This document shows positions 828 through 57,456 of a stretch of DNA of 64,000 bases, one piece after another; the first letter of the stretch is position 1, and each line of letters starts with the position of its first letter. Where the stretch lies: the NCBI GenBank assembly GCA_023247795.1, contig JAHFFT010000001.1, positions 2,868 to 66,867 of the forward strand, in the 5' to 3' direction. The stretch comes from Candidatus Omnitrophota bacterium. Its GTDB lineage: Bacteria > Omnitrophota > Gorgyraeia > Zapsychrales > JANLHA01. Made by a program: the position numbers and the translations under genes. The notes beneath the pieces were generated by a model. The model made no database searches. It saw only the letters and a program-made list of their open reading frames with translations, and had not been told where the DNA came from.

Positions 828-1292
828 TTAGCGAAGCGAAGAAGGATTGATCAAAGAAACCAACTTCCAATTCCCTTTGGAATCGCGGTCCAAAATTGCC
901 AAACTGCCGGTTTGAAAACCAACCGCGTTCTGGGCCTCATCATAAGCCAACAATTTCATGGCCAGCGTCCCCAAAAATGGCATGTGCCCCGCGATCAGGA
1001 CCACCTTTTTTTCCTTGGATAAATCTTCCATAAAACCCTCCACCGGGTCATTGGGGTTAAGATCGTTTCTGATCTCAATGGAAACATTCGCGGCAACTTT
1101 CTGTTGAATGATTTTTGCGGTCTCTTGAGCGCGGGCCTTGGGACTGGAATAAATCCGTTCAATCACGGCCTGTTCTTTCAGCAAAAATTCCGCGATGGCT
1201 TCGACTTCCCTCTTCCCAGCAAAATTGAGCGATTCGGTTTCCGTCGCGTATTGCCCGTGGCGCAGCAAATAAAGTTTCATCCCTTGCCCCAT
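828..1292 (-). CDS. sixA: Histidine phosphatase family protein (phosphohistidine phosphatase SixA-like)
   Basis: N-terminal KLYLLRHGQ (RHG catalytic motif), central YSSPKARAQETA, and a 154-aa size are typical of SixA. It sits 4 bp downstream of xseA on the same strand. Confidence 0.6.
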   Translation of the reverse strand: MGQGMKLYLLRHGQYATETESLNFAGKREVEAIAEFLLKEQAVIERIYSSPKARAQETAKIIQQKVAANVSIEIRNDLNPNDPVEGFMEDLSKEKKVVLIAGHMPFLGTLAMKLLAYDEAQNAVGFQTGSLAILDRDSKGNWKLVSLINPSSLR

Positions 1293-1699
1293 CCTCTCAT
1301 TTTCAATTCCTTCGCGATTCCCTGCACAGCACTCTTAAGAATTCCCTCCAACGGCTTAAACCGGGCCTTTGCCTCTTCCTGCTTCTGATGAAGGACCAAC
1401 CCATTTTCTCTGGTTTTATTTTTCTCATCGGACGTGTACCAATTTTCAAAATCATGAAACCCTTTTAAGGCCTGCTGATAACTCTCAATCGCCGCGGCAT
1501 ATTTTAAGACCGGTTCCTCGAAGTTGACCTCTTTGCTTGCTTTGATCCGCTGCCAAGCGTCCAATTTAAAATCGCGCAATCGATTGATCTGAAACATGAC
1601 ATAATACGACTCTAAATTTTTAGCCGCTTCTTGATCAAGGGCCAGCAGTTCTTTTCGAAGCTGCCGTTCTTTCTGAAATTGTCGCAATAAATTTATCAT
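1277..1699 (-). CDS. Hypothetical protein (140 aa, charged/helical)
   Basis: ORF with a 16-bp overlap onto sixA on the same strand. No recognisable motif. Confidence 0.4.
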   Translation of the reverse strand: MINLLRQFQKERQLRKELLALDQEAAKNLESYYVMFQINRLRDFKLDAWQRIKASKEVNFEEPVLKYAAAIESYQQALKGFHDFENWYTSDEKNKTRENGLVLHQKQEEAKARFKPLEGILKSAVQGIAKELKMRGWGKG

Positions 1700-1842: not shown

Positions 1843-2436
1843 ATGAAAAGAATGTCTCGATTTGCACAACTTGTCGTCGTTGGGTTCTTGAGTCTGCTGG
1901 CAAACCCCTGCTGGGCGGCCAGTTATTCACTTGATCAAGCGCACAGCTCCATCGGTTTTTCCATTAAGCATCTCATGGTCAGCACCATCCGCGGGAGTTT
2001 TACTGACGCATCGGGTACAATTGAGTTTGATCCGACCGCGCTCGAAACTTTTAAGGCCTCGGTCACAATTCAAGCGACCAGCATTGACACCAACAATGAA
2101 AAACGGGACAACCATTTGCGTTCCGCGGATTTTTTCGACGTGGCCAACCATCCCGCGATCACTTTTACGGGGAAATCGCTAAAGAAAAACGGTGACTCTT
2201 ATCTGATCGTTGGTGATTTGACTCTCCTCAATGTCACGAAAGAAATCTCCATTCCCTGCAGCATTCAAGGCCCGATCAAAATGCCGTCGGGCGGACAAGC
2301 CATCGGCATCTCCGGACAGACCACCATCAACCGCAAAGATTTTGGCATGACCTGGAACAAACCCATGGACCAAGGTGGATTGATGGTTGGCGAAGACGTC
2401 GCAATTGATGTCAACATCGAGGCGCATCAGAAATGA
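1843..2436 (+). CDS. yceI: YceI family periplasmic protein (polyisoprenoid-binding fold)
   Basis: Start chosen at MKRMSRF... because AAGGAG lies 9 nt upstream, not at the ORF-track start 1804. Signal peptide (LLANPCWAAS). SLDQAHSSIGFSIKHLMVSTIRGSF matches the YceI-like domain signature (D..HS...F.v.H...s.v.G.F). Confidence 0.8.
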   Translation: MKRMSRFAQLVVVGFLSLLANPCWAASYSLDQAHSSIGFSIKHLMVSTIRGSFTDASGTIEFDPTALETFKASVTIQATSIDTNNEKRDNHLRSADFFDVANHPAITFTGKSLKKNGDSYLIVGDLTLLNVTKEISIPCSIQGPIKMPSGGQAIGISGQTTINRKDFGMTWNKPMDQGGLMVGEDVAIDVNIEAHQK

Positions 2437-2448
2437 ACCTCGGTTAAA

Positions 2449-2976
2449 TCAGCTGCTCAATAGCCTTTTATAAATTCGATAATCCTGGTCATCAAAACAA
2501 CAGAAAATAACTTTTTCAATTGCGGATACGCGGGAAAGGAACTCTTTAACGGTGGCGACTGCTATCTGACCTGCTTTTTCTTTTGGAAAAAGGTAAACTC
2601 CGGTGCTGATGCAGGGAAAGGCCATTGATCGAATCTTATTTTCTTCGGCAAGCAAGAGCGACCGCTGATAACATCTTCTTAAAAATTCTGCTTCGCGATG
2701 CTGCCCGCCCTTCCAAACAGGCCCAACGGTATGAATCACATATTTTGCAGATAAACGATACCCTTTCGTTATCTTCGCCTCTCCCGTCTGACATCCACCG
2801 AGTGTACGGCACTCTGCAAGAAGCTGGGGGCCGGCGGCCCGATGGATCGCCCCATCAACGCCTCCCCCGCCGAGCAGTGAAGTGTTTGCGGCATTGACAA
2901 TCGCGTCAACCGACAATCGGGTGATGTCTGCGCAGACAGCTTCGCTTTGATTCATCGACTCCATGATAACCGTCAT
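2449..2976 (-). CDS. Macro domain protein (MacroD/YmdB-type O-acetyl-ADP-ribose deacetylase or ADP-ribosyl hydrolase)
   Basis: [36 protein letters not shown] is the canonical MacroD N-terminal motif. The start is probably MTVIMESM (2976) or MESM (2964); the ORF track extends to 3009. Convergent with yceI. Confidence 0.8.
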
Positions 2977-3075
2977 TCCCAATGAAAAAAAATCCTCGGA
3001 ACCGGACAAAAACTCCCCTCCCAGACTCTTTATTAAACAGATTCAATTTATCCTTTATTTTCAGACGAGTAGGAA

Positions 3076-3870
3076 CTATATCATTCTCTTTCTTACCAGC
3101 TCCATGATTTGAATGATCGCTTCTTGGGCATTGTCATAGATCACCAAATCCGCATAAATGTCATAAGGAGTTGCCATCAGATTGATGATCAAAACTTTGG
3201 CCCCCCGCCGTTTGGCCTCGATCACCAAATAGGCGGCCGGCTGGACTAAAAGGGACGCCCCAATGACGATAAAAAGATCGCTTTGCATGGTAGCCTGCAG
3301 GGATCGCAGAGAAGACTCCAAAGGCATGGGTTGTCCAAAGGCAATGGTGTTTGATTTTAAAATACCCCCGCACAAATCACAATAAGGAACCTGGATTCCC
3401 CCTCCTTTAATCCGCTGATAGATATGATCTCGAGAGAACCGGGCATAACAATGCAAACAACTGACCGAAAATATACTGCCATGGATTTCGATCACTTTTT
3501 CTTCTGACGATTGCGCCCTTTGATGAAGGCGATCGACATTTTGGGTGATCACCGCCAACAATTTCCCTTTATGTTCTAATTCCGAATAGGCATAATGAAC
3601 CTCATTCGGTTGTACCCGCAGCACCAATTCATAAAATTGCTGTTCCATTTCCCAAAAGATCTTTCGTGACCTTTCACTGTCAATGAATTGCTGATAAAGA
3701 AAGTCCTTAGGATCATATTTGGTCCAATAACTGTGTCCGATCCCTCGAAAATCAGGTACACCCGAATCCGTGCATGCCCCCGCACCAGTAAAGCCGACGA
3801 TCTTCTGTGAACCTAAAATCAACGACGCGGCACGTTCAATTTTTTCCTTTTTCTTTCGCGTTGAAAACAT
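3076..3870 (-). CDS. cobB: NAD-dependent protein deacylase, Sir2 family (canonical sirtuin with a Zn-ribbon)
   Basis: GFTGAGACTDSGVPDFRG (NAD pocket), ITQNVDRLHQRA, IEIHGS (catalytic His) and two CxxC pairs (CLHC...CDLCGG) give the classical sirtuin architecture. The start overlaps the stop of the upstream permease. Confidence 0.85.
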   Translation of the reverse strand: MFSTRKKKEKIERAASLILGSQKIVGFTGAGACTDSGVPDFRGIGHSYWTKYDPKDFLYQQFIDSERSRKIFWEMEQQFYELVLRVQPNEVHYAYSELEHKGKLLAVITQNVDRLHQRAQSSEEKVIEIHGSIFSVSCLHCYARFSRDHIYQRIKGGGIQVPYCDLCGGILKSNTIAFGQPMPLESSLRSLQATMQSDLFIVIGASLLVQPAAYLVIEAKRRGAKVLIINLMATPYDIYADLVIYDNAQEAIIQIMELVRKRMI

Positions 3871-8895: not shown

Positions 8896-11400
8896 TTATG
8901 CCCCTCTATTCAATTCCCCCAAACCGTTTAAGGCTCCCAAATGTCCTGGAACAATTTCCAAGGCTTTCATAAATCTTTGCTTTGCCGCACTTTTATCGCC
9001 CTTCTTCAAATCACACCAACCCAACGCGGTATAAGGATCGGCATAAATATCCTGCTCTTTATGCAGCTCGAGAAGTTGATTAAAATATCCGGCTGCCTTA
9101 TCATAATTTTTAGTGTAAAAGTAACTCCAGCCTAAATTATTCAATACCACACTCCATTTCAACCATCCGTCTTCCTTCTCCGGTTTCTTCGATAAGAGCG
9201 GTTCCAGTCGATCAATCGCCCCCTTATAATCACCCTGGATAAAATAGATCGCTCCTAAACCTAAAGAAGCGCTTTCCGAGGTTGGCTCCTTCGCTAATAC
9301 TTTTGCAAATGATTCGGAAGCCTTCTTATAAATGCCCTGATAATAATAACTCCATCCTAACCGGCTATAAAGATCAAACCAGCCCTTTTCTGCGGCAAGG
9401 ATCTTTTGAAAATCCTCCGTCATTACATAATCCGGATAAATGTCGATGGCTTTCGCAAAGGCTTCTTTAGCAGGATCCAAGTTTTTAACTTGATACTGAC
9501 TTAACCCCAAACCATAATAAGGATCGACCCAATAGGGGTTGATATCAATGGCCATTTGAAAGCTTTCCGCGGCCTTAGCGTAATCTTTGATCTTATAAGA
9601 ACTCCAAGCTAAAGCGGTCAAGGCGGAATAATTTTTTGGGCTTTCTGCCACGGCTTTCTCTAAATATTCTTTAGCGCCGACATAATCTTTCCTTTGAAAT
9701 AAAATATTGCCTAAACCACTCAGGGCATCGAGATTTTTAGGATATTCCGCCAATAATTCTCGGAATTCTTTCTCCGCACTATCCTCTTCCCCTAAACGAT
9801 AGTAACACCAACCGATCCCTCCCCGCATGGCCAAGGCCTTATCTTGCGGAATATTTTTACCAGCATTTTGCAGGTCATATTTAAATTGCTTCAAGGCCGA
9901 AAAATAATCTCCTTGATAATAATAACTCCAGCCCAAATCGGTCCGCCCATATTTGGCTTGATCAACGGCCAGCAAACCATTTAAGGCATCCGCATAGCTT
10001 GGATTGAGAGCGAGCACGGCTTTAAATTCTGATTCCGCATCATCAACCTTTTTCAACATATAATACGACCATGCCAATCCATCATGCGGATCAATCCAAT
10101 TAGGCTGATTCGTAACCGCCTTTTTAAACTCTTGTGCTGCTTCACTGTATTGTCCCAGTTTATAATCCGCCCACGCCAGGCTTGACTGGGCATCGCTTTG
10201 CACTAAATAGCTGGCAATGGTCCCGGGGATTTGGACATATTCGCTCACCGCCGGTAAAGTCGGATTCTCCTTTAACGATTGCTTAAAATATTTTGCAGCA
10301 TCTTCAAATTGACCCAATTTATAAGCGGCATAACCCAAACCCCTTAAGGTTTCGCCATTCTTTCCTAAAACTTTAGAAGCCTCATCAAATTCTTGGGCCG
10401 CGAGTTGAAAATACCCTTGTTGATAATAACTCCATCCAACCACATTATAGAGATCTTGCCAATCCGTCTGAATTTTGAGAACATTCTTAAATTGTTCATC
10501 GGCGACAAAAGGATAAATGTTGATGGCCGTCGTAAAATACTCCTTTGCCTTCGGGAAATCCTTCAAATCAAAATACGTCCAGGCCAAACCTTTATAAGGT
10601 TCAACCAAATAGGGGTTCAATTGTCGGGCCTTCTCAAACTCTGCTTTTGCCCTCTCAAAATCAGATTTGCGATTATAAATCCACCCGATCTTGCTTTGCA
10701 CATCCGGTTGATAAGCTTGAACATCAAGCGCTTTCTGCAAAAAAACCAAGGCCTGATCAAAATCATTCATCTCAAAATACGAAAAACCTATTCCTTTGAT
10801 GGCATCAAAACTATCCTTTTGCAGACTCAACACTTGCTCAAAATTATGAATGGCTTCCTGGTATTGCTTGTTGAAATGATACGACCATGCCAATCCAGTG
10901 TGAACCCTCCACAATTCTATATTCGGTAAACGTCCACTGGTATCAGCAACAATGGCTTCAAAGATAGTAATCGCCTTGCTATAATTCCCGGCATAATAAT
11001 ATTGCCAAGCACGATTAAAAGGGCGATAACGCCAAGCACTCACTTCTGCCATCCCGTTCAGGGAACCGGGGAAATATGGATAAATTTGTAGACATTTTTT
11101 AAAATTCTCTTCCGCAGTAACAAATTCGCCTTTTTGTAAATAATTCCATCCTAACCCATCATAGGGATCACACCAATCCGTGTGCTCCTGAACTTCTTTC
11201 TGAAATACCCCAATCGCTTGATCATATTGTTTATCATAATAAAGATCCCAAGCCTCTTGGGAAACGGTGGGCTCTTCCTTTTTATTGTTTTCCTCAGCCA
11301 CGGCCTTTTGAACATTGATGAAAACATTGATCAAAACAAAGATCGTCACAACGACAAAACATAACATCGTTTTACAGCTCATTAATTTTTTTAAACGCAT
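8896..11400 (-). CDS. Large TPR-repeat protein (834 aa) with an N-terminal signal/anchor
   Basis: Hydrophobic N-terminus (TMLCFVVVTIFVLINVFINV), then more than 20 TPR-like units with recurring GW(S/C)YY/GLG/A...NP motifs. The plus-strand ORFs inside it are antisense artefacts. Confidence 0.8.
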   Translation of the reverse strand: MRLKKLMSCKTMLCFVVVTIFVLINVFINVQKAVAEENNKKEEPTVSQEAWDLYYDKQYDQAIGVFQKEVQEHTDWCDPYDGLGWNYLQKGEFVTAEENFKKCLQIYPYFPGSLNGMAEVSAWRYRPFNRAWQYYYAGNYSKAITIFEAIVADTSGRLPNIELWRVHTGLAWSYHFNKQYQEAIHNFEQVLSLQKDSFDAIKGIGFSYFEMNDFDQALVFLQKALDVQAYQPDVQSKIGWIYNRKSDFERAKAEFEKARQLNPYLVEPYKGLAWTYFDLKDFPKAKEYFTTAINIYPFVADEQFKNVLKIQTDWQDLYNVVGWSYYQQGYFQLAAQEFDEASKVLGKNGETLRGLGYAAYKLGQFEDAAKYFKQSLKENPTLPAVSEYVQIPGTIASYLVQSDAQSSLAWADYKLGQYSEAAQEFKKAVTNQPNWIDPHDGLAWSYYMLKKVDDAESEFKAVLALNPSYADALNGLLAVDQAKYGRTDLGWSYYYQGDYFSALKQFKYDLQNAGKNIPQDKALAMRGGIGWCYYRLGEEDSAEKEFRELLAEYPKNLDALSGLGNILFQRKDYVGAKEYLEKAVAESPKNYSALTALAWSSYKIKDYAKAAESFQMAIDINPYWVDPYYGLGLSQYQVKNLDPAKEAFAKAIDIYPDYVMTEDFQKILAAEKGWFDLYSRLGWSYYYQGIYKKASESFAKVLAKEPTSESASLGLGAIYFIQGDYKGAIDRLEPLLSKKPEKEDGWLKWSVVLNNLGWSYFYTKNYDKAAGYFNQLLELHKEQDIYADPYTALGWCDLKKGDKSAAKQRFMKALEIVPGHLGALNGLGELNRGA

Positions 11401-11489: not shown

Positions 11490-12611
11490 TTATAAAGAAT
11501 TGGTCTTTTGATCGACTTGCTCAAGTCCGGTGAGAGAACTCTTATACGAAGGAGTAAGAGCTAAGGCTTTATTGAACATCACTCGAGCAGCTTTCATACG
11601 TCTACGACTCGTTTTATTTTTTCCTTTGGCGGTCTTATCATTATCCCAGTAAAGATACGACCAACCGATCTTATCGTAAATTTCAGCATTTCTTTCATAC
11701 TTCAAAGCCTGTTTATAAATCCCTATGGCTTCTTGATATCGCTTTAAAGAAAACAAGCAATCTGCCCATTTGATTCGGGCGTCATTCCATTGCGGCTTCA
11801 GCCGAGTGGCCATTCGAAACTCTTTTAAGGCCTTTCCAAAATCCTGACGGCTAAAATTAAGATAACCTAATGCCCGATGAGCTTCCGGCTCAGTTTTAAC
11901 ATGCACGCCCCTTTGATATCGCATCCCTTTAACTAAGGCCCGCTGGAGATATTTTTCGGCAATCTCAACTTCTCCCTTTCGAAAATAACACCAACCCAGA
12001 CCTGCATAGGCATCAGAAGAATTAGAATCTATACTCAACGCTTGTTCAAAATAGTTAATGGCTTGGGCCCAATCTGATTTTTTAAAATTTGCCCAACCTC
12101 TCCCGGTATAAGCATCAACGACCTTAGGATCCACTAAAACCAAATCGCCAAACGTTTTGCTGGCACTCTCATAATCACCTTTACCAAAATAGGCCCACCC
12201 TAGCAAAGTCAAGGCCTCTGAACTCAAGGGATTCTGTCTCACTGCTTTCTCAAAATATTCAATGGCTTTCTCGTGATTGTTAACCGATAAATAATACGAC
12301 CCTTCTGAGGCATAACCTTTGCCTCGACGATCTCCGGTGGAAGTAAAAATGGGTTCTTCTCCTACATTAACAACGGTCATCGCCATTTCAACGGGCTTTG
12401 TTCCTATTTCATAAAGTGACTTAAAAAGTTCCGGTACCTGCTTGACATTCGTCATAGACTTCGCAACATCAACCGGTAGCTTCGCGATTCCCACAACCTC
12501 CTCTTTGACCAGTTTCGGCACTTTTTTAACGGTGGCAGCACAGCCGGTCATCATTCCTCCAGCCAGCAGCAGGGTGATGAATTGCAAACATGGGTATGAG
12601 GAAATTTTCAT
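11490..12611 (-). CDS. TPR-repeat lipoprotein
   Basis: Lipobox (LLAGGMMTG-C) after a signal peptide, then about 7 TPR units (LGWAYFGKGDY, RGWANFKKSDW, LGWCYFRKGEV). Confidence 0.75.
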   Translation of the reverse strand: MKISSYPCLQFITLLLAGGMMTGCAATVKKVPKLVKEEVVGIAKLPVDVAKSMTNVKQVPELFKSLYEIGTKPVEMAMTVVNVGEEPIFTSTGDRRGKGYASEGSYYLSVNNHEKAIEYFEKAVRQNPLSSEALTLLGWAYFGKGDYESASKTFGDLVLVDPKVVDAYTGRGWANFKKSDWAQAINYFEQALSIDSNSSDAYAGLGWCYFRKGEVEIAEKYLQRALVKGMRYQRGVHVKTEPEAHRALGYLNFSRQDFGKALKEFRMATRLKPQWNDARIKWADCLFSLKRYQEAIGIYKQALKYERNAEIYDKIGWSYLYWDNDKTAKGKNKTSRRRMKAARVMFNKALALTPSYKSSLTGLEQVDQKTNSL

Positions 12612-14677: not shown

Positions 14678-15778
14678 TTAATTGGGTCGCGGACCATCAC
14701 TGCCAAGGCCGCCCGGCTGACCACCAACATGATTGGCGTTATTCAGACCCGCGCCGCCCAGACCAGGTCTTTGCGTACCCTGACTTGATAATACCCCAGG
14801 CTTCGGCATGACAGGACCGACAGGCCGATTGCCATTTAACTCTTGATGGCCGGCTCCTTGCCCTTCCATTTGGGGAGATTGGTCGGACTGCATATTCCGC
14901 ATTTGACCTTGTTCTTCTTGACTATGCTCTTGCATCGCTCCCTTCGGTGCTTCATGTTGTACTTTTATCCCTCGCATTTTCTCATACTCGCTTTTCATTT
15001 GTTCTCGACGATCTTGCTGCTCTTCATGAGACGCTTGCATTTTCTCTTGATGCTGCTCTTTCATTTCCTGCAGCTGTTCATGCTCAGCATCCATCTGCTC
15101 TCGATACTCCTGTTGCTCTTCACGAACCGCTTGCATTTTCTCTTGATGCTGCTCTTTCATTTCCTGCAGCTGTTCATGTTGCGCCTTCATTTCTTCTCGC
15201 TGTTGCTGAAATTGTTCTTTATAAGCCTCTGCGCGTTCCGAATTAGCTAACGGCGGTTTTTGGTTAGGCCCGCTTATCAGTGGTCTATTCATTTCGCCCA
15301 TTGAAGCATTGGGACGAGAACCTTCTTGCTGATCACCCATAGGGCCATTATCACGTTGCCCCATCTGATCAGGTTGATTCATTGGTTGCTGCGAACCTTG
15401 ACGGTCATTATCTGTTCGTGGACCAACCTGAGAATTGCCTTGTTCACCTTGCTGCGCACCCGATTGCGGACGATTTTGTTCTCCACCCATACGATTGCCC
15501 TGAGATCCACCCTGGCCTTGCATTCCCGATCCGTTGGGCCGATCGTTATTCATACCAGGATCTCCTCTTTGGCCTCCTGGACCGCCAGAACCACCAGGTC
15601 CACCTGCTCCGCCTTGACCACCTTGATGTCCAGCGTTCATACCCTGTCCCGGACCGCCATGTCCACCTGGACCTCCAGCTCCCGGACCACCACCCGGCCG
15701 CGGCCCTTGCTGGGCGAAAACCACACCCGAAAGCGCTAAGCAAAAAATTCCAATCAAAGCCATGATTCTCATTTTCAT
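14678..15778 (-). CDS. Secreted low-complexity Gly/Gln/Pro/Met-rich protein with a tandem coiled-coil repeat
   Basis: Signal peptide MKMRIMALIGIFCLALSGVVFAQQ; long GGPG/QGG/MNxxxQ low-complexity tracts. The centre carries two copies of EQLQEMKEQHQEKMQA within 33-aa repeats. The plus-strand ORFs 14843-15250, 15326-15739 and others are antisense artefacts of the repeat. Confidence 0.6.
   Translation of the reverse strand: MKMRIMALIGIFCLALSGVVFAQQGPRPGGGPGAGGPGGHGGPGQGMNAGHQGGQGGAGGPGGSGGPGGQRGDPGMNNDRPNGSGMQGQGGSQGNRMGGEQNRPQSGAQQGEQGNSQVGPRTDNDRQGSQQPMNQPDQMGQRDNGPMGDQQEGSRPNASMGEMNRPLISGPNQKPPLANSERAEAYKEQFQQQREEMKAQHEQLQEMKEQHQEKMQAVREEQQEYREQMDAEHEQLQEMKEQHQEKMQASHEEQQDRREQMKSEYEKMRGIKVQHEAPKGAMQEHSQEEQGQMRNMQSDQSPQMEGQGAGHQELNGNRPVGPVMPKPGVLSSQGTQRPGLGGAGLNNANHVGGQPGGLGSDGPRPN
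15020..15220. repeat. Two tandem copies of a ~99-bp unit inside the Gly/Gln-rich gene
   Basis: Near-identical units gctcttca[tc]ga[ga]c[cg]cttgcattttctcttgatgctgctctttcatttcctgcagctgttcatg... are directly visible in the sequence. Confidence 0.7.
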
Positions 15779-15845: not shown

Positions 15846-16018
15846 CTTAATTCAAAACACTTGATTCGGTAATCAGGCTATCCTCTCTTAAAGGACCCTT
15901 GACTTTGCGCCCCACTGTTACCAGTGGTTTGCCTTTTCGTCAGACCCGCGAATTGTTAAAGAACATTTTAAATATAAAATATTTTGCCGGTAAAAATCAA
16001 GTGACAAAAAAATATTTC

Positions 16019-19000
16019 CTAAAATTCTTGTAAAGACTTAACTCTTTTTGTTTCTTGATGATAGCTCAATTGCTCTTCGTTCGGTGGAACCGTTTTCCCG
16101 ATCAGAGCTGGTAAATTGGTCACAGGCTTGATCTCCATGATGATCGGCAGAAAGCCATCAAATTGTAAATTTTTAATCTGCTCCGGATCAAAATCAAACT
16201 TGATTGCTGGCCCTTCATTTTGAATCATCAGCTCCAAATTTTCCGGATTCAAGTCGATACCACCAACCTCCGATGAAGCATTTTGCGGAGCAATGGTAAT
16301 CGCCGACACCTGTGGATTATTTGTATTACCTAGAAAAAAGGAATCCTTCATCCCCGGAGCTAATACCAAATTTTGGTCTAATAAATCAAGATCATTGCTG
16401 TCTCCGTTTTCTTTCTTAACTTGATTTTTAGCAATGTCCCAGACCCCGCCAAACCCAAAATCGAAAGCCTTGCCAGCCCACCCAGGGTATCGAGCAAAAT
16501 CAATCTGAACAGCATTATCTTCTGCCATAACCGGCTTTCCAGTCTCTGGATCTCTGACCATCACTTTTCCCGTGGGATCAAAATAAAGTCCTAAATCCAA
16601 ATGCCAATTGACAATTTCTTGCGCGGTCTGCCGACTTTCACCGTTTGTTACCGCAAATGCCTTGGATTCAATCAACTGATTGATTTGGGCGGAAGCACTT
16701 TCTGACAAATCATGAGCGCTTTCAGAACGAGGCTTGGCATACCAAGATCTTTGAATCTCACCGGTTTCCGGGTCAAAGAGGGCCATGACCGCCTCCTGCC
16801 TTTTCCATTTGTATTGACCGGTAACGGTCGAATAAGTATCACTGCTGTAATAAAGTTCCATCCGATTATCACGCGAAGCCAAAACATAAATACGGTCGTG
16901 CATAAAAAACGCTTGATGGAACAGAAACAAATTGGGTTTACCTTCGGTTGTATTTTGACGGTTCTGCCTGACATATCTGGCAAATGCCTCTTTTGTGGGA
17001 GCATCCTTCGCGTTGATCACCTTGAATGAGTAATCCCCGCTGTTCACTTCGCCGATGACGCGATCTTCATCCCTGCGCCATTGAGCTTTTTTGTTTTTCT
17101 TGATCAGAAGTCTCTTGACCCGCCCCAATTCAACCGCCTTGGAAAATTTATAGCTCCGATATTTGTAGATCAATTCCGAAATGACGTATTTGAGATCCAC
17201 CACCTTCTCTGCCTTCTCAAATTGATAAACCAAAACGAGGTAATGCGTGATCAAAGCAAGAATATCGGCCTGATCACCCTCAGTTTTTACACCGAGTTCT
17301 TTGTCAACATCACGGATAAAATCCTGATCAATATACTCAGCCAGTTTTAGAATCCCATCTTTATCTTTCCCTAAAAAATATTTTTTCATCTCATCATTAA
17401 CTTCGATCGCCATTATTGTGTTCAACCGTTCTATTCTCCTTTCAAGCTTTAGTATTTCCTCTTGACCAAAATTTTCCTTTAACTGTAATTTTAGTAGCAC
17501 TAATTCATGCCTTCGTTCCGCGTTAGTCATTAATATGCTGCGGACTGGCACTTGAGTAAATTTGTGATACCCATTCGCCGTTAGGACCGGTGCTAAACGA
17601 TTCGCCTGAGCAAAAAAGTCAGCCCGATCTGACGGGTTTGTTGTAAGAACGATATCCAAGGCCAAAGCAATGAGATTGAGAATATTCCGGTAGCGGTCTG
17701 GATCAGATTGAAAAATCTTAGCCAAAGGAAAATCGACATCTAACTTGAAACGATTTCTTTCTTTTTCATCATTTTGGACAACAATCTTTAAAACGTTGCC
17801 GGGGCTGCGCTTTTTTATCGTTTTCTTGATTCGATCTCGATCGATATCCGCTTTCGTGATCTCATTGATCGCCATGGTTCCTTCTGTTCCAGCGGTCCCC
17901 TCGATTTCATCCTCGAATGCTTCAGGAACAGGTACGAGAGGGATATCCGACTTGGATTCTTTATGGCCTTCGACAATGGCAGCAATCGTTTGCTGTTGAA
18001 AATCTGTGAGATCTTCATCAACACCTGGTTTCGGTGTTCGAACAGGAAACCCTTTGCCAATCTCGGCCAAGACGGGTTTCAATTCACTCCATTCCTTAAT
18101 AGGCAATTTAGTAAATCGAGAACTTTCTCTCAATAAAACCAACCGCGAATAAATCCTGCCGACATGGCTTTCTGGTTCCAGTTCATCCAGTTCATGCAGA
18201 TCGATGGCTTCCAGCAACTCCGCGATATCATCCCTCGTTGCCTCAATCCTTTCCAAGTCACTCGCCACCGTCTGGCGAAAATACTCCATGACAACCTCTG
18301 ACGATTCCAAAATTTTTTTCATAGCGAACATCGCTTCTTCATCATCCATTTGATCACGGACCGAATTCATCCCTCTCGCGAAATAGCGAGTACATACCTC
18401 TGGTTCTCTTTCAAATTTCCCCAAAATCTTCGCAATCAACCCCTCACGTAATGCTGCTGCTAATTTTTGCACGTTCACACTGAATTTATTTTCCCTTCGA
18501 ATCATATCAAATGTTATAAGCTGACTGGCCGTAAGCTCTTGCTGACCTTTCCCACGTAAAATCTTGACCGCTTGCGGCAATTGCTTTTGTTGCGTTAGAA
18601 TGACGGCTAAAATCAATCGCTTTTGATCATCGGTCAATTGCGCGCTTTCTTTGATTCGCTTTTTTTCATCCAAATAATCCTGATTGGCATCAGCGACCAG
18701 GAACTTAACCGCGCGTTGCAAATATTCTGGCATTGCCTTGAGCATTTTATTATTTTGTAAAACATATCTTTGGTTTCCAGAATCGGGATCAAAAATTCTT
18801 CCGCAGCGCGTTGCGATGATTTTAAAAGGATACGAATCCCCGACCGAATCGTTATGAGTGGGTTCAAAATCAATCTTGCCCTCATCATCAATTCGACCTT
18901 CCAGCATCGTGGGCGTATACTCACTATGCATCGCCTCGGTTATCAAAACCTTTTCAACGGATTGATGGAACCGGCTTCTTTGATTTATCGCCAAGCTTTG

Positions 19001-22000
19001 AATTTTTTTGTCCGAAAGCGTAAACGCGCTTTTCCACGCAACACCGATGCCATTTTTCGATTTCAAATCTTGAATCTGAAACCGATACCCTTGCTGTTCA
19101 CTGCCCAAAACTTGAACTGAAAAATTCCTTCCCGAAAGCTTATCGTCATTCGCGAATAATAGCTCTGCCCCAGCACCCCTACCAACGATAAATTCCTTAC
19201 CTACGCTAAATGCCCTCACATCCCCAGCTAGTGCTGTGTCAATTGTTTTATCTGGAAACGCCTGTAGGTAGGCACGATCACCCGCAACCCAAAGCCGATA
19301 CCAACCTGTTCCGGCTTGGATCCAAACATCATCAATCAACTCTTGCATTCCCGTATCCAAGACCTTCTCTTCCCTCGTTTTCATATTTCTATCGTCTAAG
19401 ACTTGATCTTTAGTTTTGACCATCCTTTCCCATTCCACGGTGATGGATCTATCTGTATAAGTCCCTGTCTTAACTCGATAATTCTCTGTCCCTGGAATAG
19501 GGTCTACGACGATATAACAATGTTCCGATTGAAGGTTGGGATCATTCGGGAAATAAAGTTCATCGATCTGCTTATTTTTTCCAAAAGCATGGAGCTCTCC
19601 TAAACTTATTTTGTAAACTTTCGATTCGTTTGAGGGCGGACCATTCTTGATGTCATGCTGCAGGACCCGGACCTGGTTGTTCACAACCCGAATACTGTAC
19701 CAAAATTTTCCACCCTCGGGCTGGATCCACTGGACCCTACCGGGCAACAAAACAAATTCAACCGGTGCCGGAGTTTGCGATTCTCCCCGCCTATTGTTCG
19801 TCGGAGCCAAAACAACCGGCTTGCCCGCTTTTGTTTTCATATACCTTGCTGTTGCTCCTACTTTGGGAGCTGAATTAACCACAGCAGCATTGTCCATCGA
19901 TCTTTGAATGCCAATCAGATTGGATAAATTCTGATAGACACGGTGATAAAATCTTGCGTCTTGAGGAAAAAAGTCGGAGTCATAAATAAGACGGTTTGCC
20001 CACCCCAATGATAACCAATCCTTTTTCCGCAATTCGCTCATGATTTCAGCCTTTTCCACGAGACTTAAAACTTTCTCTTGTTTGAAATAATTTAAGGCTG
20101 CGTCATAATCATTTTTTAAAAGCGCCCCTAACAATTTAAAAGTTGCGTCGTTTTCTTTAGAATCACTTTGCATTTCACGCAAATATTGCACCAAATGATC
20201 CGCAGAAACTTGTTGAGGATATCTCTCTTGTAATTTCGCTTTCACGCGATTTTTAACTCGCAAAAAATTTTCGGTCGCATGTTCACCAAGCAAATAAGAA
20301 CGCTGCAACTCAGGTGTTTTCATGAAATTGAGCATTAAAGCATTGTCCACCGTACCAAAATAAGGATGAGCCTCTAGCGCATCCATATAACTACTCATTT
20401 TAGCAACGACTGCATCAAAGTCGTCGAAATCACCAGCGCTATACCCATCCTTCATGAGTGCCTCGGCAATGCCCTCTATCATTCGATCTTCATCAGGATT
20501 TTGAGATTCCACTGCGGTACCGATGGTGCTGACTTTATCTTGACGACCCGCGTTGGAATCAAGCAGTTGCTCCCGGTCCTGCTCGGTATATGCCCCGGTC
20601 CCCGTTCGTTGATCCGCCGTGACCCATTCTGCCGGTTGTTCCAGCAGTCCTAACTGCTCTCTGGCCCGTTTGATTTTGACCCGCCCATTGATTTCACTCA
20701 GCTCGTGCTGTTCGACCGCCTCGGTCATATCGTCGCTGAAACCGAGGACAATCCACTCTCCCCGGACCTTATCGAAATAGTTGATCGCCTTGATCCCGGC
20801 CTTGGCTCCGGTTTTACTGCTCATATGGTTGATCACCCATTTATCAAAAACTTTTCCTAATTCTGTTTCTTTCGCCCCGCGATCAATGCGGATGACCTTG
20901 ACTTTGTAGTTTAAGTCCTTTTGATTGATAACTTGCTGCCCCTCATAATCCAAGGTCTCGCCTGCTGCCACCTGCTGCTCAATCGACGGAGAAGCTGTTG
21001 GCAAAAACCCATTCTGGTCAAGAAGCCCAACGATATGATTCAAAATCTGGTCTTCACTGGCGTTTTCAGGAAGTTTTTTCCCCTTGGCAACGGTGTTCAA
21101 CAAACGAATCATCCGGTTATAATAGGTTACCGGGGTGACAACCGCGGAGGCATTATAAACTTTTTGGTTTTCTAATTGCGCGGAGGTTAAATTCTGAGCT
21201 TCTGATGAGACATCAATGGTGGTGACACCACTAACCTCTGTTCCTTTAAATCCTCCGGAAAAATATTTCCTCGGGATGGAGGCTTGAAGATACGGATCAT
21301 AATCTTCTTTGATGTAGTTATAAACCCCCTGCTTGAAGGCCGCGATATACTGCTCATAAATCTGCTGTTGACCGTCCTTGTCATCTGAATCAACTCCGAC
21401 GACCTTATTTTTATCCACATAAATGCTGTCGAGAATGCTTTCGCGCAACTTCTTTTTGAACCAGGTCGCGAGGATCATGGCGTTGTAAATCTGGCGCAAT
21501 TGGGCAAAATTCTGACCTTCATTGACTTCTTTTTCGATCGTCGGTAAAACGATTTTCTTGACGATGTCTGAAGAAAAAGTACTGACGCTACCAACATCCG
21601 TGTTAGTCAATGACTCCGTCCCTAAATTTTTATTGCCTCGATTGGAATCCAGAGCGAGATAATCTTCTTCCAACATCACCTGCAAATGACTTTCAATCAC
21701 AAAAGCGGTCGCGCCATTTTCATAGACCCGGGCCTTGTCAGGAACAATCCAGACTTTATTGAAGGTATTGATCGGGACGTTGGTGGTACCATATTCCTGA
21801 TAGGCCTTTTCATAAATTTCCTTCCAAAACTGCGCACCCAGCTCTTTTTCCGGGTAGATCAAAGAGGCAGTGATTTGCTTTAACAGATAGTCCTGGGCCA
21901 AAAGATCGCGCCCCATCTCGGTCTGACCAAACTGTTCGGGAATGATCCGATTTTCTTCATAGGGCGACAAATTGACCCACAAGTCCTTTTCCGGGACCGT

Positions 22001-22300
22001 CAGGGTTGCTAAAAAATATTTGATCATCTTTTGCGATTCTTCCTTCAAGGCTTGATCAGACAGCGTTTGGTCCCCAGGTGTTACGATGAAATCAAACCGA
22101 AAAGGGTTATTAGGGAAAACCTTCACCCCCTTTAACAAGGCCGGCGCAAAGGCCTGGCTTAGCCCGACCATCGAGCCTGCCTGCGGAAGATTGAGCGGTT
22201 GAATTTGCGCGAAACCATTCCCGGGGCTGATCAGATTGAAAAAAAAAGTGAAAATAATCAGCAGATTGATACTTCGATATTTTTTGATTTGCTTTGCCAT
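16019..22300 (-). CDS. Giant secreted protein (2093 aa) with FHA-like segments and a conserved ~55-aa C-terminal module
   Basis: A single uninterrupted 6.3-kb ORF with an N-terminal signal peptide (LLIIFTFFFNLISPGNGFA-QI). Internal FHA-like stretches (FIVGRGAGAELLFANDDKLSGRNFSVQVLGSEQQGYRFQIQDLKSKNGIGV). The C-terminal GGIDLNPENLELMIQNEGPAIKFDFDPEQIKNLQFDGFLPIIMEIKPVTNLPALIGK is homologous to the C-terminus of the 60206-63997 protein. Confidence 0.8.
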   Translation of the reverse strand: MAKQIKKYRSINLLIIFTFFFNLISPGNGFAQIQPLNLPQAGSMVGLSQAFAPALLKGVKVFPNNPFRFDFIVTPGDQTLSDQALKEESQKMIKYFLATLTVPEKDLWVNLSPYEENRIIPEQFGQTEMGRDLLAQDYLLKQITASLIYPEKELGAQFWKEIYEKAYQEYGTTNVPINTFNKVWIVPDKARVYENGATAFVIESHLQVMLEEDYLALDSNRGNKNLGTESLTNTDVGSVSTFSSDIVKKIVLPTIEKEVNEGQNFAQLRQIYNAMILATWFKKKLRESILDSIYVDKNKVVGVDSDDKDGQQQIYEQYIAAFKQGVYNYIKEDYDPYLQASIPRKYFSGGFKGTEVSGVTTIDVSSEAQNLTSAQLENQKVYNASAVVTPVTYYNRMIRLLNTVAKGKKLPENASEDQILNHIVGLLDQNGFLPTASPSIEQQVAAGETLDYEGQQVINQKDLNYKVKVIRIDRGAKETELGKVFDKWVINHMSSKTGAKAGIKAINYFDKVRGEWIVLGFSDDMTEAVEQHELSEINGRVKIKRAREQLGLLEQPAEWVTADQRTGTGAYTEQDREQLLDSNAGRQDKVSTIGTAVESQNPDEDRMIEGIAEALMKDGYSAGDFDDFDAVVAKMSSYMDALEAHPYFGTVDNALMLNFMKTPELQRSYLLGEHATENFLRVKNRVKAKLQERYPQQVSADHLVQYLREMQSDSKENDATFKLLGALLKNDYDAALNYFKQEKVLSLVEKAEIMSELRKKDWLSLGWANRLIYDSDFFPQDARFYHRVYQNLSNLIGIQRSMDNAAVVNSAPKVGATARYMKTKAGKPVVLAPTNNRRGESQTPAPVEFVLLPGRVQWIQPEGGKFWYSIRVVNNQVRVLQHDIKNGPPSNESKVYKISLGELHAFGKNKQIDELYFPNDPNLQSEHCYIVVDPIPGTENYRVKTGTYTDRSITVEWERMVKTKDQVLDDRNMKTREEKVLDTGMQELIDDVWIQAGTGWYRLWVAGDRAYLQAFPDKTIDTALAGDVRAFSVGKEFIVGRGAGAELLFANDDKLSGRNFSVQVLGSEQQGYRFQIQDLKSKNGIGVAWKSAFTLSDKKIQSLAINQRSRFHQSVEKVLITEAMHSEYTPTMLEGRIDDEGKIDFEPTHNDSVGDSYPFKIIATRCGRIFDPDSGNQRYVLQNNKMLKAMPEYLQRAVKFLVADANQDYLDEKKRIKESAQLTDDQKRLILAVILTQQKQLPQAVKILRGKGQQELTASQLITFDMIRRENKFSVNVQKLAAALREGLIAKILGKFEREPEVCTRYFARGMNSVRDQMDDEEAMFAMKKILESSEVVMEYFRQTVASDLERIEATRDDIAELLEAIDLHELDELEPESHVGRIYSRLVLLRESSRFTKLPIKEWSELKPVLAEIGKGFPVRTPKPGVDEDLTDFQQQTIAAIVEGHKESKSDIPLVPVPEAFEDEIEGTAGTEGTMAINEITKADIDRDRIKKTIKKRSPGNVLKIVVQNDEKERNRFKLDVDFPLAKIFQSDPDRYRNILNLIALALDIVLTTNPSDRADFFAQANRLAPVLTANGYHKFTQVPVRSILMTNAERRHELVLLKLQLKENFGQEEILKLERRIERLNTIMAIEVNDEMKKYFLGKDKDGILKLAEYIDQDFIRDVDKELGVKTEGDQADILALITHYLVLVYQFEKAEKVVDLKYVISELIYKYRSYKFSKAVELGRVKRLLIKKNKKAQWRRDEDRVIGEVNSGDYSFKVINAKDAPTKEAFARYVRQNRQNTTEGKPNLFLFHQAFFMHDRIYVLASRDNRMELYYSSDTYSTVTGQYKWKRQEAVMALFDPETGEIQRSWYAKPRSESAHDLSESASAQINQLIESKAFAVTNGESRQTAQEIVNWHLDLGLYFDPTGKVMVRDPETGKPVMAEDNAVQIDFARYPGWAGKAFDFGFGGVWDIAKNQVKKENGDSNDLDLLDQNLVLAPGMKDSFFLGNTNNPQVSAITIAPQNASSEVGGIDLNPENLELMIQNEGPAIKFDFDPEQIKNLQFDGFLPIIMEIKPVTNLPALIGKTVPPNEEQLSYHQETKRVKSLQEF

Positions 22301-56367: not shown

Positions 56368-57024
56368 TTACTTCTTTGCAAAATACTTGGCTGCTTTATC
56401 TTTGCCGCCTAGCCCATAAGCCAGGGCAAGAGCAAGCACCACACCGCCAAAAAGAATATAGAACGGGGTGCCGACAAAGATCTCGCCGAACCCAAGTTCG
56501 ATGACCGTTACCTTGATGGCATAGATCGTAATGGCCCATCGAGTTACGCGTTCATAGATCTTTGGCTTGGGAAAACCGACGTGCGTGGTGATGACATAAA
56601 TGACGCTTGCAACCACCTTCGCTATGATTAAGCCCAACGCCAAAGCTAATACGGCTGCGACAACCTGCGGCAAATAAGCCACAGTGCCAGAGATCATGCC
56701 GCCCGACATCGTCACTCCGAGGTGATCAACCGTCATCAAAACAAAGATGACCATAACCACCAAGTGGACCAATGAAGCAACCAGATCACTGAATTTATGC
56801 TTTACCCCACCTTTATGAAGAGCCCCTGACAAGCCAATCTTGTCAGAAAGAATGTCAAACTTGAGCTCTGTCAATAATCGGTGAAAGATAACGCGCAGCA
56901 CTTTAGCCACAAAAATACCGACTAATAGAATTATTAGTGCGCTGACCAAAGTGGGGACGTAACTCGCTACCTTATAGACCATGTCTCGAAACGGTGACAG
57001 TAATAAAGTATCGATTGTAGTCAT
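56368..57024 (-). CDS. Membrane protein with conserved TM-helix repeats (MscS-associated TM_helix type)
   Basis: Start probably at MTTIDTLLL; the ORF track extends to 57081. Repeated hydrophobic helices are separated by K/R-rich loops (ALIILLVGIFVAKVLRVIFHRLL...). Weak family assignment. Confidence 0.45.
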   Translation of the reverse strand: MTTIDTLLLSPFRDMVYKVASYVPTLVSALIILLVGIFVAKVLRVIFHRLLTELKFDILSDKIGLSGALHKGGVKHKFSDLVASLVHLVVMVIFVLMTVDHLGVTMSGGMISGTVAYLPQVVAAVLALALGLIIAKVVASVIYVITTHVGFPKPKIYERVTRWAITIYAIKVTVIELGFGEIFVGTPFYILFGGVVLALALAYGLGGKDKAAKYFAKK

Positions 57025-57456
57025 TTTAATCCCCTCCTTTCTTTTAACCATTGCTGCCTGCATCATCAGCTGTCGTAACAAAAAAGGCCCAGACTTTGAA
57101 TCGATCTGGACCTTAGATATGCGTAAAATCAGTTGGACTGCTATTGTTGCAGCCCGGCCACCATAGAAGTATCCTTAGGTCCGAGGCTTTGCGCCCTTAA
57201 GTTTCCTTAAGTTTGCCTTTCGAGAGTCCTCCCCTACTTTTCTCACCTCTGAGAACCTCTCAATTAGAGCATATCACATTTTGGTGGTTTGACAAGGTGG
57301 CTAGAGGGAATTAGACTAGAATCATAATATATTGAAAATAAATGAGTTATGGATTAGACATTTACAGATCCCTAAAATGAAGCATGCTCGCAACCAAAAT
57401 CGCGCCTCAAGAGAATCAAATGGGAGCCAAGTCCGGATCTGACTCACTTTTTATAC

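Follow-up and report, generated by a model that had tools for sequence, protein, structure and literature searches.

Gene order at the sirtuin locus and in its relatives

The window analysed here is a stretch of 64,000 nucleotides (nt) from a Candidatus Omnitrophota bacterium (assembly GCA_023247795.1, contig JAHFFT010000001.1, positions 2,868 to 66,867 of the forward strand). Near its beginning the minus strand carries a gene for a sirtuin of the SIR2 family, followed by a gene for a macro-domain protein; both open reading frames (ORFs) lie where a first-pass annotation, made from the letters alone, had placed them (coordinates in Table 1). In the direction of transcription, the genes ahead of the sirtuin encode a secreted tetratricopeptide repeat (TPR) protein of 834 amino acids (aa), a PqqD-family protein of 124 aa, two ATP-grasp ligases, a pyridoxal phosphate (PLP) decarboxylase and a protein of the urea-transporter (UT) family. 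These same-strand genes are tightly packed, with gaps of -11 to +12 nt, and the ATG of the sirtuin shares 1 nt with the UT stop codon.

The closest homologs of the sirtuin (56-64% identity) come from metagenomes and from Omnitrophota metagenome-assembled genomes (MAGs). Ten distinct loci with the 3' end of the UT gene on the contig were counted (the window, L002, L004, L005, L009, L011, L012, L020, L021 and L022), and the sirtuin stands behind TPR-PqqD-ATP-grasp-ATP-grasp-decarboxylase-UT in all ten. The UT-SIR2 junction measures -1 or -4 nt in six of them and +1, +9, -20 and +114 nt in the others; the stop/start overlaps are consistent with translational coupling of UT protein and sirtuin. 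The gene 3' of the sirtuin varies by locus and is a macro gene, an aldo-keto reductase, a resistance-nodulation-division (RND) pump, a response regulator, a transposase fragment or an unknown ORF. Two further genes, for the outer-membrane beta-barrel and for a second TPR protein (TPR373), are relocated to the other side and the other strand of the cassette in L004 and L011.

The 25 sirtuins sharing at least 56% identity form a single clade (40 of 40 neighbour-joining bootstraps; stem of 0.21 substitutions per site), and every member whose genomic context is known lies in the cassette. The next-closest sirtuins (46-49% identity) are located beside an acyl-coenzyme A (acyl-CoA) ligase of the AMP-forming type or among unrelated genes. 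Housekeeping sirtuin and YmdB genes are generally scattered or lie beside an acyl-CoA synthetase, whereas the window sirtuin is fixed in a specialised operon and belongs to a clade of its own. The first-pass annotation had regarded a clustering with housekeeping CobB deacetylases, together with unrelated neighbours in relatives, as the mark of chance adjacency; the sirtuin does derive from housekeeping-type deacylases, yet within its clade the neighbours are never unrelated. The same annotation had set the sirtuin immediately downstream of the ligases. The adjacency to the ligase cassette is indeed not due to chance, although the decarboxylase and UT genes intervene. That the sirtuin functionally belongs with the ligase cassette is well supported by this conserved gene order.

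Two of the related loci show peculiarities of their own. The full Omnitrophota-type cassette of L012 (CAZOWS010000037.1), whose proteins share 43-67% identity with those of the window, lies on a contig labelled 'uncultured Actinomycetota bacterium', which may be a binning or labelling error. In L022 two ORFs (1890-3304) make up the decarboxylase, which tblastn recovers in pieces at 1959-2492 and 2498-3301; either an assembly error has introduced a frameshift or stop, or the gene is a pseudogene.

The sirtuin protein

In a comparison with sequences of solved structures, the sirtuin is closest to Sir2Af2 (1ma3, 3e-48), followed by Sir2Tm (1yc5, 1.8e-41), with Sir2Af1, SIRT6, SIRT3 and SIRT5 as lower-ranked relatives in the PDB. 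The motifs GAGxxTDSGVPDFRG and TQNVD and the catalytic pair H130-G131 align with those of Sir2Af2 and Sir2Tm. The Rossmann NAD-binding motif, of the GAGxSxxSGIPDFR type, reads GAGACTDSGVPDFRG, the TQNxD motif is present as TQNVD, and H130 is the catalytic histidine. Two zinc-binding CxxC pairs, C138/C141 and C164/C167, align to the cysteines of Sir2Af2. Catalytic, NAD-binding and zinc positions are conserved to at least 95% in the 25 sirtuins of the clade as well as in 55 outgroup sirtuins, and an alignment of the two sets has about 14 distinguishing positions, most of them conservative.

The placement into a class follows from the ranked PDB and NCBIfam scores. The CobB model NF040867 reaches 217.5 (cutoff 320) and NF001753 reaches 215.4 (cutoff 243), both below threshold; by these scores the protein is to be classed as a member of the Sir2 family, not as a curated CobB/deacylase equivalog. 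It is most likely a canonical NAD+-dependent lysine deacylase of the Sir2Af2/Sir2Tm type, for which deacylase rather than transferase chemistry would be expected. The earlier description as a classical deacylase-type enzyme agrees with the retention of all catalytic, NAD-binding and zinc residues, in the protein itself and across its clade.

PADLOC returned no match to a defence-system SIR2 (ThsA, DSR or SIR2-HerA type) for the sirtuin, the macro protein, the UT protein or either ligase, and an anti-phage identity of the sirtuin was dropped on this ground.

The macro-domain protein and its association with the sirtuin

The macro protein passes the cutoff of the equivalog model NF001664 (O-acetyl-ADP-ribose deacetylase; Table 1) and scores 171.6 with NF003163 (protein-ADP-ribose hydrolase), below the cutoff of 272. 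Its best PDB matches are MacroD2 (204 bits), MacroD1 (187 bits) and Escherichia coli YmdB (177 bits); SAV0325 (5kiv) reaches 116 bits. The catalytic motifs of MacroD/YmdB proteins are N-x-GGVD-x-H and GVYG (PMC8120803). The window protein possesses the N..N..GGGVD..H motif, beginning with NAAN, and carries a GVYL variant in place of GVYG. The MacroD-type affiliation assigned from the letters alone is borne out by the NF001664 score and by the three top PDB matches. MacroD enzymes are established hydrolases of O-acetyl-ADP-ribose (PMC8120803), and the protein is predicted to be an O-acyl-ADP-ribose deacetylase. Judged by sequence, sirtuin and macro protein are each an ordinary member of their family.

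The macro ORF begins with TTG, just downstream of the Shine-Dalgarno-like run GGGAGGGGAG, and alternative ATG starts are available at 2976, 2964 and 2955. Because of the lengths of its homologs, the true start could be an ATG 30-55 nt inside the TTG ORF. The distance to the sirtuin amounts to 66 nt from the TTG and to approximately 100-120 nt from one of the three ATG codons, and no terminator-like or promoter-like site was found in this gap. The macro gene closes the string and faces a convergent YceI gene, whose end is 12 nt away.

Among the 11 loci with a known 3' flank, a macro gene adjoins the sirtuin in three (the window, L012 and L022), and these macros belong to two subfamilies and occur in two orientations. 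In the window the macro gene is co-directional with the sirtuin. The L012 macro is of the same subfamily (57% identity) and convergent, with overlapping 3' ends. The L022 macro represents the other subfamily, with 32% identity and 'ADP-ribose-binding protein' as top NCBIfam match; SIR2 stop and macro start share a 4-nt overlap there. In the sirtuin tree, the macro-bearing loci are spread over two or more separate branches. The window macro is of a family with at least 8000 matches at E <=1e-20, and among the matches listed it shares 62-72% identity with proteins across Bacteroidota, Chlorobiota, Ignavibacteriota and Omnitrophota. Its three nearest homologs have neighbours such as MsrB, DUF2203 and HisG, never a sirtuin, and the macros of the window and L012 have closer relatives elsewhere (71% and 68%, respectively) than each other.

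Assuming one or two macro genes per genome of approximately 2,000 genes, the chance expectation for three juxtapositions in 11 loci is in the order of 1e-7. Since three of 11 is far above chance for a gene of one or two copies, the association is to be regarded as real but facultative, with the macro as an accessory, lineage-specific gene. Facultative recurrence would fit the scavenging of O-acyl-ADP-ribose released by the sirtuin, rather than the role of an obligate eraser. A sirtuin-macro pairing as a conserved unit, as first supposed, is not found: most loci lack it, and the macro comes from a very common housekeeping family, in which the closest homologs are encoded away from any sirtuin. 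The pairing alone would amount to ordinary enzymology, namely clearance of a by-product.

The slot 3' of the sirtuin is occupied by an aldo-keto reductase in L004 (10828-11727), L011 (15524-16486) and L021 (15551-16483). It is similar to methylglyoxal reductase YdjG, below cutoff, and overlaps the sirtuin stop in two of the three loci. One may speculate that this reductase acts on a reactive by-product of the sirtuin.

A possible role of the sirtuin in the cassette

Bacterial sirtuins are usually regarded as global deacetylases. To our knowledge, SirTM is the one well-studied sirtuin embedded in an operon, and it belongs to a chemically divergent class. At the present locus an unmodified classical sirtuin is fixed, apparently with translational coupling, in an uncharacterised envelope-associated operon, making the locus a specific example on which the pairing of a canonical sirtuin with a dedicated pathway can be tested.

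With a confidence slightly above even, we favour a dedicated canonical deacylase whose target is one of the cassette enzymes or else the peptide or protein that the cassette handles, the macro proteins being optional scavengers of its by-product. One Omnitrophota clade would have recruited the sirtuin as the dedicated, co-translated last gene of the operon. There, it would remove the acyl moiety of a lysine-type epsilon-amide on such a target, which may sustain the activity of the pathway or modify what the pathway produces. Nicotinamide and 2'-O-acyl-ADP-ribose would be released, and a MacroD-type macro protein, where present, could hydrolyse the latter to ADP-ribose and the acid. Such a macro would be an optional accessory, recruited repeatedly and standing outside the core system.

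Several observations weigh against this proposal. The few, mostly conservative substitutions of the clade mean that nothing in the sirtuin sequence marks a new specificity or an altered chemistry. The cassette as examined contains neither an acyltransferase 'writer' nor an identifiable target lysine, and among the small ORFs (18-110 aa) that lie outside the large genes at window positions 1-26000, none recurs in the nine related loci compared, as a precursor peptide would. A macro gene is absent beside the sirtuin in eight of the 11 loci, and the L012 macro, being convergent, lies on a separate transcript and is not co-transcribed with the sirtuin. Since all cassette-linked sirtuins belong to a single lineage of phylum level, inherited gene order could account for some of the conservation of sirtuin and cassette.

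The last point leads to a simpler explanation, in which a general CobB-like deacetylase and a general YmdB would merely have remained at the end of the operon by inherited gene order, with no role in the pathway. The best NCBIfam models of the sirtuin are of CobB type (217 bits), its active site is unchanged, its nearest outgroup relatives occupy housekeeping-like contexts, and the macro is of a ubiquitous family, all of which such hitch-hiking would predict, as it would the restriction of the linkage to a single phylum. It would not predict that the UT-SIR2 junction is kept in all ten loci though both flanks are rearranged, that stop and start codons overlap in most of them, or that the clade members of known context are without exception in the cassette. 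We regard this explanation as unlikely.

Comparison with SirTM systems

As in SirTM systems, sirtuin and macro genes of the window are adjacent and stand in a string with ATP-dependent ligases and a small protein. In class M sirtuins the catalytic HG reads QG and the enzyme has ADP-ribosyltransferase activity; the gene is obligatorily accompanied by one of a particular macro subclass, and GcvH-L and LplA2 often belong to the same operon (PMC4518038). The target is the lipoylated GcvH-L. Later work established zinc binding by this macro subclass (PMC8120803). The first-pass annotation had contrasted the window sirtuin with a 'Zn-less' SirTM, a premise that does not hold, the SirTM structure having a zinc-coordinating domain (Rack et al. 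2015, PMC4518038).

The resemblance stays on the surface. Unlike SirTM, the window sirtuin keeps H130-G131, a pair conserved in clade and outgroup alike. In contrast to the approximately 270-aa zinc macro of SirTM systems (SAV0325-like), the window macro is of YmdB/MacroD type, and its adjacency to the sirtuin is occasional rather than obligate. A domain search found no lipoyl-carrier or LplA domain among the neighbourhood proteins. The 'SirTM-like genetic arrangement' of the first reading is thus without QG, zinc macro, GcvH-L or LplA2. Fold, motifs and predicted chemistry of the window pair are instead the same as in CobB, Sir2Tm and Sir2Af2 on the one side and YmdB/MacroD on the other.

A signalling system of SirTM kind would have the sirtuin ADP-ribosylate a cassette protein, such as a ligase-modified form of the 124-aa PqqD protein, and the macro protein reverse it. 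Sirtuin, macro, ligases and small protein do form one gene string, and weak ADP-ribosyltransferase activity occurs in some canonical sirtuins (PMC8120803). The retained HG speaks against it, as does the macro, which scores 177-204 bits with YmdB/MacroD structures and 116 bits with the zinc macro SAV0325; YmdB and MacroD1 do not reverse the ADP-ribosyltransferase modification made by SirTM (PMC4518038). GcvH-L and LplA2 are lacking, and a macro missing from eight of 11 loci is no obligate eraser. Such signalling is very improbable here, and the suggested SirTM-style write/erase scheme with the macro as eraser finds no support in a facultative macro of YmdB/MacroD type. A write/erase cycle in which the sirtuin would act on a cassette component is conceivable.

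Other genes of the cassette

The 124-aa protein (Table 1) matches only models of PqqD-family chaperones and has a Lys-rich N-terminal extension. It had first been taken for a carrier protein; Pfam, NCBIfam and alignment identify it instead as a peptide chaperone of PqqD or RiPP recognition element (RRE) type, where RiPP denotes ribosomally synthesised and post-translationally modified peptides. An acyl carrier protein (ACP) and a LysW- or GcvH-like carrier were considered and are out, PqqD-family models alone giving matches.

For the ATP-grasp ligases, a sequence search yielded the structural-genomics entry 2pn1 ('CPS-like') and weak matches to PurD and Ddl, which are uninformative. The decarboxylase matches FslC (7kh2, 227 bits) better than LysA/diaminopimelate (DAP) decarboxylases (at most 164 bits), and it matches BtrK too. 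FslC is the N-citrylornithine decarboxylase of rhizoferrin synthesis, and BtrK decarboxylates carrier-bound glutamate. These relatives suggest that the decarboxylase of the cassette works on an amino acid already attached by a ligase. The UT protein has 18 close homologs, every one of Omnitrophota type. The beta-barrel of 546 aa is weakly similar to alginate export proteins.

Table 1. Features of the window and of related loci (positions in locus coordinates; L numbers denote related loci).
Feature	Location	Strand	Evidence and remarks
MacroD/YmdB-type macro domain, 186 aa from TTG	2449..3009	-	Pfam Macro 6.8e-49; NF001664 236.1 bits, cutoff 200
SIR2 sirtuin, 264 aa	3076..3870	-	Pfam SIR2 1.1e-39, 136.6 bits, cutoff 24; H130-G131; two CxxC pairs; last gene of conserved cassette
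UT family inner-membrane protein, 362 aa	3870..4958	-	Pfam UT 2.2e-32; stop overlaps sirtuin ATG
Fold-type III PLP decarboxylase, 466 aa	4971..6371	-	PDB FslC 7kh2 227 bits, ahead of LysA
ATP-grasp ligase 2, 352 aa	6361..7419	-	Paralog of ligase 1; only in Omnitrophota-type cassette
ATP-grasp ligase 1, 362 aa	7430..8518	-	PRK12767/PylC-like; core ligase, kept in distant cassettes also
PqqD-family (RRE-type) peptide chaperone, 124 aa	8515..8889	-	Pfam PqqD 47.4 bits, cutoff 23.4; NCBIfam PqqD models; alignment
Secreted TPR protein, 834 aa (TPR834)	8896..11400	-	First gene of tight operon in riboswitch-headed relatives
TPR protein, 373 aa (TPR373)	11490..12611	-	Cassette-linked even in rearranged loci
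Outer-membrane beta-barrel, 546 aa	12629..14269	-	Pfam Alginate_exp 27.7 bits, cutoff 25.2; cassette-linked even in rearranged loci
c-di-GMP-I-GGC variant aptamer	15864..15942	-	RF03167, 61.8 bits, gathering score 59
c-di-GMP-I aptamer (RF01051)	L004 2066-2152	+	64.6 bits; directly 5' of TPR834-to-SIR2 operon
c-di-GMP-I aptamer (RF01051)	L011 6863-6950	+	60.6 bits; directly 5' of TPR834-to-SIR2 operon
UT::Peptidase_M23 fusion	L024 12441-14606		M23 signal also in L013, L027-L030, L032, L034, L083
UT::Peptidase_M23 fusion	L023 13104-15353
UT::Peptidase_M23 fusion	L031 12443-14749

The combination of a carboxylate-amine ligase with a PLP enzyme of DAP-decarboxylase fold is shared with rhizoferrin FslA/FslC and butirosin BtrI/BtrJ/BtrK synthesis, in which FslC, and likewise the more distant match BtrK, decarboxylates an already ligated amino acid. 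Unlike these pathways, the window cassette has neither a siderophore synthetase of the NIS type nor an ACP, and beyond them it possesses a PqqD chaperone, a UT-like membrane protein, TPR and outer-membrane barrel proteins and the sirtuin. As in RRE (PqqD)-dependent peptide maturation, a stand-alone PqqD gene lies directly upstream of the modifying enzymes and overlaps them; unlike in those systems, no conserved precursor peptide gene was found in the cassette loci. A literature search found no RiPP class combining the cassette enzymes with a UT-family protein or a sirtuin, nor did it yield relevant work on the cassette or on clusters of this kind that contain a sirtuin.

Distant cassettes with UT::M23 fusions

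A scan with the alignment of ligase 1 found five genomic and 74 metagenomic loci. The distant cassettes (30-38% ligase identity; one of them from an Elusimicrobia MAG) contain PqqD, a single ATP-grasp ligase and the decarboxylase. Downstream sequence sufficed in 18 distant loci, and in 11 of these a protein of 715-770 aa with an M23 peptidase domain is encoded next; the architecture UT::Peptidase_M23 was confirmed by Pfam in all three proteins tested. The metallopeptidase motifs HxxxD and HxH are intact in these fusions, a C-terminal domain of approximately 220 aa without assignment follows M23, and no further hydrophobic segment was seen after the UT domain. The L024 fusion gene is followed by genes for a putative outer-membrane protein and for a TPR protein. 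No sirtuin or macro gene occurs within the fetched flanks of the distant loci. The Omnitrophota cassette differs from the distant ones by its second ligase, by a UT protein without M23 and by the sirtuin immediately after UT. The assemblage of PqqD, ATP-grasp ligase, FslC-like PLP decarboxylase and UT::M23 represents a widespread and apparently undescribed cassette.

The positional match of two amide-cleaving modules, M23 and sirtuin, is the basis for reading the sirtuin as an enzyme of the pathway itself. Working on the cytoplasmic side of a UT-like channel, the sirtuin would take over the task of M23 and split an N-epsilon-acyl or isopeptide linkage that the ATP-grasp ligases have formed; the macro would resolve the resulting O-acyl-ADP-ribose. 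Besides the occurrence of M23, with intact motifs, in cassettes that lack a sirtuin, and the position of the sirtuin immediately after UT, this reading can draw on ATP-grasp ligase 1, which is weakly PylC-like, PylC being an enzyme that forms an N-epsilon-acyl-lysine bond, and on the decarboxylase, whose relatives FslC and BtrK have amino acids in amide or carrier linkage as their substrates. The argument is one of position only, however; a peptide context is a usual requirement of sirtuins, the Omnitrophota cassette gained a second ligase too, which implies several simultaneous changes, and a macro is absent from most loci. We consider a biosynthetic amidase of this kind rather improbable. 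A broader form, in which the sirtuin is not a regulator but an enzyme of an envelope pathway controlled by cyclic di-guanosine monophosphate (c-di-GMP) and cleaves an isopeptide bond on a PqqD-bound substrate, while macros and possibly aldo-keto reductases process the acyl-ADP-ribose, appears equally doubtful. The dedicated deacylase set out above is the reading we retain.

Riboswitches and flanking genes

The c-di-GMP-I-GGC variant aptamer of the window is located upstream of an ORF of 366 aa, which precedes the beta-barrel gene on the same strand, and its control may reach the cassette. Aptamers of type c-di-GMP-I head the cassette operon in L004 and L011 (Table 1). In the available upstream sequence of L019, L020 and L021 no riboswitch was found, even at a relaxed threshold, so riboswitch control of the cassette is not universal. 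Together with the TPR and beta-barrel genes, the riboswitches point to a function related to envelope or matrix.

The riboswitch of the window is flanked by a 2093-aa ORF (16019-22300, minus strand) and the 366-aa ORF (14678-15778, minus strand), which have no Pfam match at E <=0.01. Beyond the convergent YceI gene, on the other side of the operon, lies a gene for a SixA-type phosphohistidine phosphatase (828-1699, minus strand; TIGR00249 90.7 bits, cutoff 74.5), overlapping an ORF of 140 aa; both are outside the operon. A second c-di-GMP-I aptamer of the window (57145-57227, minus strand; RF01051, 73.4 bits) is located upstream of a 237-aa ORF (56368-57081, minus strand).

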